IMG/VR virus record: IMGVR_UViG_2778261056_000003
Source of the DNA: a virus
Lineage: Duplodnaviria; Heunggongvirae; Uroviricota; Caudoviricetes
Strand: one strand, 5' to 3'
Length of the DNA stretch: 4,457 bases
Below are positions 1,579 through 2,372 of the stretch, in pieces (position 1 is the stretch's first letter; the number at the start of each line of letters is the position of its first letter). Made by a program: the position numbers and the translations under genes. Under the pieces are notes generated by a model, which was not told where the DNA came from, did not search any database, and saw nothing but the letters and a program-made list of their open reading frames with translations.

Positions 1579-2019
1579 ATGAGAGAAGAAAAAATAATAA
1601 CAATCTACACAACGGCGGTAAAACCCGGGCTGGCAATCACTCCTTTTATGACACCAGATCCTATAATAGTGTCGGAAGAATACCCTTGTTCCGGCTCATT
1701 TTACCTAACTGCAATAATGTACTTCGAGCACGAAAAAAAATACACTACCGAACTTGATGTCGTATTCAATGGAGAATCGGTTTTACCTGATATCTCTAGC
1801 AATCAAGAGCAACTGCAAACATTTATGTTTTCTCCTGTCAATGAAAAATATGTTGTGGTTGGCACATATCTTTTCGTTAAAAACATCAAACTTATAGAAA
1901 CAGGAACATATGACATAATTTATCGCATCTTTGAAGACATTGATGGTAATCTTAGCGAAGTTATTGATGAAAAAAAATGCGCTCTTATTTCAACCACCCC
2001 GAACAGAGATAAGGAATGA
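1579..2019 (+). CDS. hypothetical protein, cassette gene A (no recognisable domain; predicted soluble)
   Basis: 146-aa ORF in distinctly AT-rich DNA. SD AAGGAA (1565-1570) lies 8 nt before the ATG. No terminator separates it from cI. Its stop overlaps the start of gene B (ATGA at 2016-2019). Confidence 0.75.
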   Translation: MREEKIITIYTTAVKPGLAITPFMTPDPIIVSEEYPCSGSFYLTAIMYFEHEKKYTTELDVVFNGESVLPDISSNQEQLQTFMFSPVNEKYVVVGTYLFVKNIKLIETGTYDIIYRIFEDIDGNLSEVIDEKKCALISTTPNRDKE

Positions 2020-2372
2020 AACGACATCTGTACGCTGTGCCTCTTGACAGGAGTAAAGTTGATAATTTTCCACATAACCACCATAATGATGAGACATATG
2101 GTGGTGGTAACGGTGGAGGTGGTGACATGTTACAGCGCATAAAAATTCTTGAAGATAAAGTCGCAACCATGGCGACCGACATCGCTGTAATTAAGTCTAA
2201 CTATGCAACATCTGCCAATGTAGAATCTGTTAAAACAGACATAGCTAATGCAAAAGCAGAACTTCACAGCGCAATGAGACTCCAAGCCATGGCTATTATT
2301 GGTTCAGTTCTTGCAGCCGTTGGAACTGGTGTTGGGTTAATAATAAAAATGATGCCATCACTACCTCACTAA
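2016..2372 (+). CDS. small Gly-rich, coiled-coil protein with C-terminal transmembrane anchor, cassette gene B
   Basis: 118-aa ORF coupled to gene A by an ATGA overlap. An alternative in-frame start at 2127 has a strong SD (GGAGG 2115-2119, 7-nt spacer) and would give 81 aa. Heptad-like segment LQRIKILEDKVATMATDIAVIK...; C-terminal hydrophobic helix AMAIIGSVLAAVGTGVGLII (coding about 2286-2354). Followed by an intrinsic terminator. Confidence 0.75.
   Translation: MKRHLYAVPLDRSKVDNFPHNHHNDETYGGGNGGGGDMLQRIKILEDKVATMATDIAVIKSNYATSANVESVKTDIANAKAELHSAMRLQAMAIIGSVLAAVGTGVGLIIKMMPSLPH

Follow-up and report, generated by a model that had tools for sequence, protein, structure and literature searches.

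How many proteins does a small gene make when it offers two in-frame start codons, each with its own signature among homologues? The question is raised by gene B in a 4,457-nucleotide (nt) stretch of tailed-phage DNA (Caudoviricetes; IMG/VR record IMGVR_UViG_2778261056_000003), here called the window, in which A and B are two neighbouring genes behind a phage repressor gene. B could be translated from an ATG that overlaps the stop codon of gene A, giving a protein of 118 amino acids (aa; B-long), or from an inner ATG behind a Shine-Dalgarno sequence, giving 81 aa (B-short). The original prediction, made from the letters of the window, had described both starts as competing and had mentioned two isoforms from one gene as a further option. 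That option is the best reading, as each start has an independent comparative signature. We consider it probable, from comparison with homologues, that both proteins are made. Our confidence is lower, only a little better than even, in the overall model of a nested two-product A-B cargo module in which B-long is coupled to A and B-short has its own start signals.

The two starts of gene B

The ATG of B-long (2016-2018) overlaps the TGA of gene A (2017-2019) as ATGA, and the reading frame ends with a TAA at 2370-2372. The N-terminal segment of B-long reads ...FPHNHHNDETYGGGNGGGGD. The features on which the original prediction drew, namely the 2016 start coupled to A, the GGAGG, the ATG at 2127, the 81-aa open reading frame (ORF) and the hydrophobic C-terminus, were all found where it had placed them. 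Because the junction of Gly-run and Met, the Shine-Dalgarno spacing and the open upstream frame recur across many diverged homologues, these features are beyond what chance would give.

All 17 distinct loci that carry the Gly-run have 34 or more open codons in frame 0 ahead of the inner Met. In 16 of the 17, frame 0 stays open farther than the other two frames; its median length is 52 codons, compared to 26 for the +1 frame (Wilcoxon p 4e-4), and in only about three loci is the +1 frame open through the extension. All 21 loci that have a partner gene, with extensions unrelated in sequence, place an in-frame ATG at −2 to +17 nt from the partner stop codon; this placement is the geometry of translational coupling. 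In the GGGN codons of the Gly-run the third positions vary freely (GGT/GGC/GGA/GGG, AAC/AAT) and the residues are kept. On account of the open frame 0, the ATG at the partner stop and the synonymous wobble, we read the segment 2016-2126 as coding, which is what the comparison of homologues proposed in the original prediction was meant to decide.

These observations bear directly on the view that only the 81-aa protein is made, that 2016-2126 is a non-coding promoter and leader, and that the long ORF is an artefact of gene calling. Gene callers picked the short form in several relatives, the conserved block of the mosaic described below is exactly the Shine-Dalgarno sequence plus the short ORF, a promoter and a Shine-Dalgarno sequence would suffice for expression, and in chromosomal relatives the short form is the entire gene. 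However, 17 unrelated upstream sequences that are all open in frame 0, the ATG at each partner stop and the synonymous wobble are difficult to reconcile with a non-coding leader, and loci with a second type of partner, characterized by CxxC pairs, have an extension without the promoter. The prophage copies that were gene-called at 78-81 aa all have an open extension upstream. Production of the short form only is thus quite improbable.

The inner start is marked by a Met (Met38) that is conserved in at least 90% of the family. GGAGG is positioned exactly 7 nt ahead of it in 14 of 16 distinct loci, and the flanking Gly codons wobble. The codon that creates GGAGG is GGA, which makes up 15% of background Gly codons. 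Between lineages the synonymous divergence (dS) of the core is 0.7-1.0, so that retention of GGAGG is not mere shared ancestry; the core ratio of nonsynonymous to synonymous divergence (dN/dS) is 0.01-0.11. Chromosomal Pseudescherichia genes start at the inner Met, with in-frame stops upstream and no partner, and keep a purine-rich GGAGAAGGAGAG before it. These stand-alone short genes are under purifying selection (dN/dS 0.04-0.37), which suggests that the short form is functional on its own. Predicted RNA folding near either start is no stronger than in shuffled sequences, with a z-score of -0.07 near the internal Shine-Dalgarno sequence, and the internal site should therefore not be occluded. 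The conserved Met, the GGAGG spacing, the stand-alone genes and the lack of occluding RNA structure together indicate that the inner start is probably used. The GGTGGAGGTGG run had originally been presented as either a poly-Gly linker or ribosome-binding sequence; both assignments appear to hold, the run serving the two purposes together, and it is the choice between them that falls away.

The same data can be held against the possibility that only the 118-aa protein is made. In that case the Gly-run would be a flexible linker, and the GGAGG, the Met and the promoter-like hexamers described below would be relics of an ancestral short gene or coincidence. The NCBI Prokaryotic Genome Annotation Pipeline (PGAP) calls solely the long form (WP_001549084.1), in four of the four complete E. 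coli genomes with gene B, and the long ORF is clearly maintained. The inner Met is the ancestral start of the family, and its conservation may be partly historical. At the synonymous divergence of the core, however, unselected sites should have drifted, yet the GGA codon needed for GGAGG was kept in nearly all loci while its neighbours wobble, and a −35/−10 pair persists at one position in extensions that cannot be aligned, once in another codon phase. We regard exclusive use of the long start as unlikely, and use of both starts as the better description.

Two further observations concern the short form. In E. coli O125ac strain C 236-04A (NZ_CP109924.1; locus L002, 2681-3909) an IS2 element splits gene A at about codon 34-35, with B and the repressor intact; this is a natural A-knockout that is polar for the operon transcript. 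Since B is intact beside the disrupted A, and since stand-alone short genes exist, B-short is probably tolerated alone and not a free-standing toxin. In some genomes (L011, ~5010-5650, and L015; Pseudescherichia and Enterobacteriaceae metagenome-assembled genomes) the stand-alone short gene occurs as two diverged copies, in tandem in L011. These duplicated genes lie between a DUF903 gene and terC/mutH, and the paralogues have a dN/dS of about 0.2.

A candidate promoter within the extension codons

The top σ70-like match in the interval 700-3000 is TTGATA-17-CATAAT, which agrees with the consensus at 10 of 12 positions and is situated in the codons of the extension. The predicted transcription start, at about 2094-2096, would be some 33 nt before the ATG at 2127, just where the conserved block has its 5' edge. 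Sites scoring at least 9/12 were found in the extension in 8 of 20 distinct loci against 1.5 expected, 7 of them at one position. Position-specific scoring of 12 lineages with mutually unalignable extensions gave a mean of 7.8, compared to 3.6 in control windows from the same loci (Wilcoxon p 7e-4; Fisher combined p 2e-6). Across lineages the candidate −10 hexamers are CATAAT, CATACT, CATGAT, TATAAT, GATTAT and GATGAT, which encode HN, HT, HD, YN, DY and DD, and L031 retains the hexamer but shifted to another phase of the codons. The variety of encoded residues and the shift of phase suggest that the constraint acts on the DNA and not on the peptide.

An embedded −10 hexamer would also explain the His-rich look of the extension in the window. 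Of the His/Gly-rich extension in the original prediction the Gly-run is retained, but the His-rich part does not stand as a conserved peptide, being the codon image of CATAAT (His-Asn). A pattern P-H-N...Y-GGGNGGG, considered as a conserved peptide that would prove the extension to be coding, was dropped because its P-H-N corresponds to the candidate −10 hexamer. A perfect TTGACA at 2044-2049, which precedes the candidate −35 by 15 nt, has no usable −10 at a spacing of 16-18 nt and is probably a coincidence.

Co-inheritance of the extension with gene A

Five loci or locus groups (L001, L004, L005, L092/94 and L096) have 81-aa cores that are 84-100% identical. Compared pairwise, loci with at least 84% core identity are concordant in every one of 15 pairs: extension and partner are both related (59% and 61%; 96% and 98%) or are both no more similar than noise. 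This concordance among pairs with similar cores was used in place of a Spearman correlation of extension against partner identity over all pairs, which is uninformative as most pairs are at noise level. At the nucleotide level, identity is about 25% upstream, jumps to 83-100% at about −30, and drops directly after the stop codon. The conserved unit is the Gly-run plus the 81-codon ORF, and A and the extension are hypervariable parts that swap together. L004 and L005 combine identical cores with unrelated partner-plus-extension cassettes, which implies recent exchange.

Profile iteration identified all partners of about 145 aa as homologues of A. The A protein is modelled as an immunoglobulin (Ig)-like β-sandwich with a predicted local distance difference test score (pLDDT) of 84, and its structural neighbours are generic only. 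Neither a hydrophobic segment nor an export signal was found in it. A weak DUF6941 match for one partner is below threshold (18.5 bits, cut-off 27). Upstream of the B relatives in L020, L024, L046, L057 and L073 a second, unrelated partner family occurs, of about 110-130 aa and with two CxxC pairs. These proteins, probably zinc ribbons, are stop-start coupled to a B-long with Gly-run and were matched by no Pfam or PADLOC model.

The conserved core of B

AlphaFold2, supplied with 53 relatives, gives residues 1-35 of B as disordered (pLDDT of the extension at most 50) and residues 36-112 as one continuous helix. Kyte-Doolittle analysis shows a single hydrophobic segment, with a 19-residue maximum of 2.23 at residues 92-110. 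Heptad periodicity is present, with interruptions. The coiled coil followed by a C-terminal transmembrane helix that had been foreseen for B is thus borne out at the level of prediction, the interruptions in the heptads being the qualification. The first ~10 residues of otherwise unrelated extensions (2016-2045 in the window) frequently have an aromatic-x-hydrophobic-Pro pattern (HLYAVP, EVFQLP, TIHRLP, NVFPLP, VVTFPS), which may be a short docking motif.

The B family is broadly proteobacterial, with 67 close cluster representatives and 115 at the 50% level. Its members share a plan of Met, heptads, a D-I/V-A-V-I-K-S-N-Y-A-T-K-x-D motif, a variable helical stretch and a C-terminal hydrophobic helix. 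The hydrophobic C-terminus was found in all B relatives. Many members start at the inner Met, and the distant ones are stand-alone genes in housekeeping neighbourhoods. One apparent relative, P0095 (5,994 aa, 27 stretches), is spurious, a eukaryotic mucin-like repeat protein for which weak matches had been summed. In Xenorhabdus relatives (L059, 4833-6161; L070, L071) arrays of a 14-15-residue helical repeat, with up to ~25 extra repeats and up to 449 aa in total, separate the N-Y-A-T-K motif from the C-terminal anchor, which gives the impression of a stalk of highly variable length. These genes adjoin epmC and a GNAT gene and are not in prophages.

The top-conserved element of the family is the N-Y-A-T-K-x-D motif (Y 87%, A 87%, T 94%, K 64%, D 85%; n=143). 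It resembles the β-layer consensus [aliphatic]-A-T-K-[polar]-[DE], which has been structurally defined for trimeric α/β coiled coils and also noted in DUF1640 membrane proteins (PMC4786415). The family consensus Y-A-T-K-x-D fits that of the β-layer proteins (Tcar0761, DUF1640) save for Tyr in place of an aliphatic residue, and the family profile matches PDB entry 5apz, a Tcar0761 construct, with an E-value of 1.8e-5 in an alignment across the motif. In DUF1640 proteins, too, the motif occurs together with a stalk and a membrane anchor at the C-terminus; B was not matched by the Pfam model of DUF1640. A trimeric coiled coil with a β-layer-type stalk is a reasonable inference for the core from these sequence matches.

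An alternative for B as a whole is an XhlA-type lysis accessory, serving holin and endolysin and misplaced in the immunity region. XhlA of the Bacillus PBSX-type lysis cassette is similarly small, with a helical, coiled-coil-like N-terminal part and a C-terminal hydrophobic helix, and NCBI names several B relatives 'hemolysin XhlA'. The Pfam model of XhlA (PF10779) matches 3 of 53 relatives weakly (E below 0.01). However, the best relative, P0110, reaches 25.8 bits where the gathering cut-off is 34.7, and neither the 118-aa nor the 81-aa form of the window gave a match at E up to 1. No relative examined lies in a lysis cassette: every prophage copy examined is between the repressor and the pL operon, none is by a holin or endolysin, and the distant relatives are the chromosomal genes mentioned above. 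Besides this context, B differs from XhlA in its Gram-negative hosts and in the added extension and partner gene. The XhlA-like character given to B in the original prediction thus holds for the general architecture but not for family membership or context, and a misplaced lysis accessory is very improbable.

Setting in the immunity region and distribution

The window covers the immunity region of a lambdoid prophage, with its orientation flipped (Table 1). A and B are the last two genes of the repressor operon and occupy the slot that holds rexA and rexB in λ. The immunity-region placement of B was therefore correct and can be made more precise: B is the final gene of the operon, the intrinsic terminator follows it, and the arrangement is found in prophages of E. 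coli, Citrobacter, Enterobacter, Serratia and Pantoea. No terminator-like site was found between cI and gene A, and an Rfam search of the window gave no match. After the terminator comes the pL leader, with the N-type antiterminator beyond. In the RefSeq genomes the latter is unannotated as a gene; at its 3' end PGAP lists only a pseudogene of 69 nt, named 'regulator, incomplete, missing N-terminus'.

Table 1. Features of the window in order of position
Feature	Position	Strand	Evidence or remark
cII	20-319	−	
cro-like gene	458-691	−	
cI-type repressor (helix-turn-helix and Peptidase_S24)	805-1509	+	Pfam PF00717 E 3.8e-16; PHROG 4; first gene of the operon, carrying A and B downstream
Gene A	1579-2019	+	146 aa, acidic; Ig-like β-sandwich, predicted cytoplasmic; hypervariable partner of B
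Gene B, long ORF (B-long)	2016-2372	+	118 aa, 12.6 kDa; start overlaps stop of A (ATGA)
N-terminal extension	2016-2126	+	37 codons; predicted disordered, hypervariable, co-inherited with partner A
Candidate σ70 promoter	2059-2087	+	Consensus match; −35 TTGATA 2059-2064, 17-nt spacer, −10 CATAAT 2082-2087 (His23-Asn24 codons)
Gly-run GGGNGGGGD	2100-2126	+	Predicted linker of B-long; candidate 5' leader and ribosome-binding region of B-short; 5' edge of conserved mosaic block
Internal Shine-Dalgarno sequence GGAGG	2115-2119	+	7 nt before ATG 2127-2129
B-short ORF	2127-2372	+	81 aa, 8.5 kDa; conserved core, whole gene in stand-alone relatives
Y-A-T-S-A-N	2202-2219	+	Window variant of the top-conserved family motif N-Y-A-T-K-x-D; β-layer-like
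C-terminal hydrophobic helix	2286-2351	+	Residues 91-112 (AMAIIGSVLAAVGTGVGLIIKM); putative tail anchor with small-xxx-small motifs, then 6-residue tail
Intrinsic terminator	2383-2414	+	8-bp stem (6 GC pairs) 2383-2404, then T-run; tIMM-like operon end, right edge of cargo slot
N-type antiterminator	2977-3360		127 aa; Pfam N_peptide E 2e-15; PHROG 271 E 3e-39
ORF	3361-3588		75 aa; PHROG 5305 (unknown function)
DUF7446 / PHROG 1578 protein	3973-4215		80 aa; unknown function, in pL operon

The order of leftward cro, repressor, partner, B and pL operon recurs in the prophages of the five genera. A repressor-like ORF is upstream on the same strand in essentially all loci with an Ig-type partner, and the layout was seen in 25 loci. 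Strain ABWA45 has the same A-B pair behind a different repressor and cro, which indicates that A-B moves as a module. The pair was found in only 4 of 5,426 complete E. coli genomes. A scan of metagenome contigs for close relatives yielded only 3 loci. Upwards of 800 other E. coli genomes, and 105 phage records as well, share just the terminator-proximal 70 nt (2381-2450), at 90-95% identity, with other cargo in the slot, for example DUF2335 or P63C proteins.

A possible mechanism and its standing

The anatomy of the gene, the signatures of conservation at its two starts, the mosaic and the genomic setting are shown by the sequences; the mechanism that follows goes beyond them. B-long would be translated from the ATG at 2016 by coupling to A on the repressor-operon transcript, and its 37-residue extension, disordered and hypervariable, would evolve and recombine together with A, the Gly-run joining it to the core. 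B-short would be initiated at the ATG at 2127 by means of the GGAGG that the Gly codons encode and, in the clade with Ig-type partners, it would also be expressed from the σ70-type promoter embedded in the extension codons. The core could be a long helix in the cytoplasm that contains a β-layer-type motif, is probably a trimeric coiled coil and ends in the C-terminal tail anchor. A tail-anchored protein whose C-tail has 6 residues keeps its N-terminus in the cytoplasm. In this topology, and as A lacks an export signal, it is in the cytoplasm that the extension would tether the variable Ig-like A to the conserved membrane core. In the lysogen, the module may counter superinfecting phages through exclusion or abortive infection; A would be the variable part, for recognition, and B the conserved part, in the membrane. 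Activity could be tuned by the amount of short form relative to long form, as may be the case with the λ rexB-only pLIT transcript.

A role of A-B in phage defence or exclusion is possible, though we put it at slightly less than even, on the basis of position, patchiness and evolutionary pattern only. The lysogen-expressed membrane effector of the original prediction is likewise still an inference. The candidate internal promoter, the linkage of extension and partner gene and the β-layer-type motif had no place in that prediction. The most specific version of the proposal is an undescribed module in which a hypervariable Ig-like sensor A docks on the tether, present in the long isoform only, of a trimeric tail-anchored protein. 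The promoter (His-Asn as −10) and Shine-Dalgarno sequence (Gly-Gly) in the tether codons would yield an isoform without the tether, which would either set the ratio of sensor to effector or shield the prophage while it grows lytically itself, and sensor-plus-tether cassettes would be exchanged at the Gly-run. This combination is speculative, and we think it rather unlikely to be right in all its parts.

Several results count against the proposed module. The promoter is a consensus match, and promoter-like sites in the window occur at chance frequency (6 found, 5.7 expected); position-specific scoring of the five CxxC-partner loci gave no promoter signal. Selection on the peptide of the extension appears weak, with a dN/dS of 0.47-0.65 over 25-35 codons in the one alignable pair with unsaturated dS, and the co-inheritance of extension and A could stem from physical adjacency alone. 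The window's own β-layer-like motif, YATSAN, is degenerate and a minority variant in the family, and the AlphaFold2 monomer model of B is a plain helix. As to defence, no PADLOC model matches A, B or any partner, and tblastn of B against 50,697 isolated-phage records gave no homologue.

Alternatively, A-B could modulate the prophage's own switch or host membrane physiology and have no part in phage defence. The operon position is that of rexAB, and for λ RexA and RexB a role in the transition from lysogeny to lysis has been proposed. That the core has relatives on chromosomes implies a membrane function of a general kind, and the defence databases gave no match. The extreme divergence of A and its cassette-like exchange against a conserved B core, together with the patchy distribution, fit the target of an arms race better, if indirectly. 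A role confined to the switch or to membrane physiology is conceivable but doubtful.

Comparison with known systems

The closest parallel to the A-B module is λ rexA-rexB, whose two genes likewise follow the repressor directly as cargo, are co-oriented with it and end at an intrinsic terminator (tIMM). In both cases a soluble first protein is followed by a membrane protein, here as predicted. λ has a promoter, pLIT, embedded in the end of rexA; it transcribes rexB alone and stops at tIMM. The candidate promoter described here is comparable in that it would express the membrane protein from within upstream coding sequence, but it is located in the extension of B itself, so that the second transcript would encode a truncated isoform. 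RexB is polytopic in the membrane; for B a single C-terminal helix is predicted. Searches with Pfam, NCBIfam and PADLOC models gave nothing above threshold for A, B or ten partner proteins, and no sequence similarity to RexA or RexB was found in them.

Nested in-frame starts are known from the λ holin-antiholin pair S107/S105 and from P22 sieB/esc, where one ORF with two in-frame starts gives a full-length and an N-terminally shorter product. As in these systems, the isoform ratio of B could set activity. The starts of the λ holin are 2 codons apart and the protein has several transmembrane helices; those of B are 37 codons apart, with one hydrophobic segment and an immunity-region context. 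Unlike the holin, B-short has its own candidate promoter, and the part specific to B-long co-varies with a separate partner gene. The logic of A-B thus resembles that of RexAB with pLIT and of nested in-frame isoforms, and differs in its parts and in the signals embedded in the tether codons. No paper in the literature library searched mentions the A or B protein accessions; the proteins are unannotated or loosely labelled XhlA.

The 'hemolysin XhlA' labels on the proteobacterial B family are unsupported by the Pfam model. If the proposed module is real, the best-studied slot of lambdoid prophages would hold a compact, unannotated two-gene exclusion module with parts unrelated to RexAB, missing from defence catalogues. 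One 110-nt stretch would then serve as protein linker or tether, promoter, 5' leader and ribosome-binding site. A motif that seems to be conserved as peptide, such as P-H-N or the Gly-run, can reflect signals in the DNA and RNA. Synonymous mutations can remove the promoter or the Shine-Dalgarno sequence and leave the long protein unchanged, so that the isoforms are cleanly separable.

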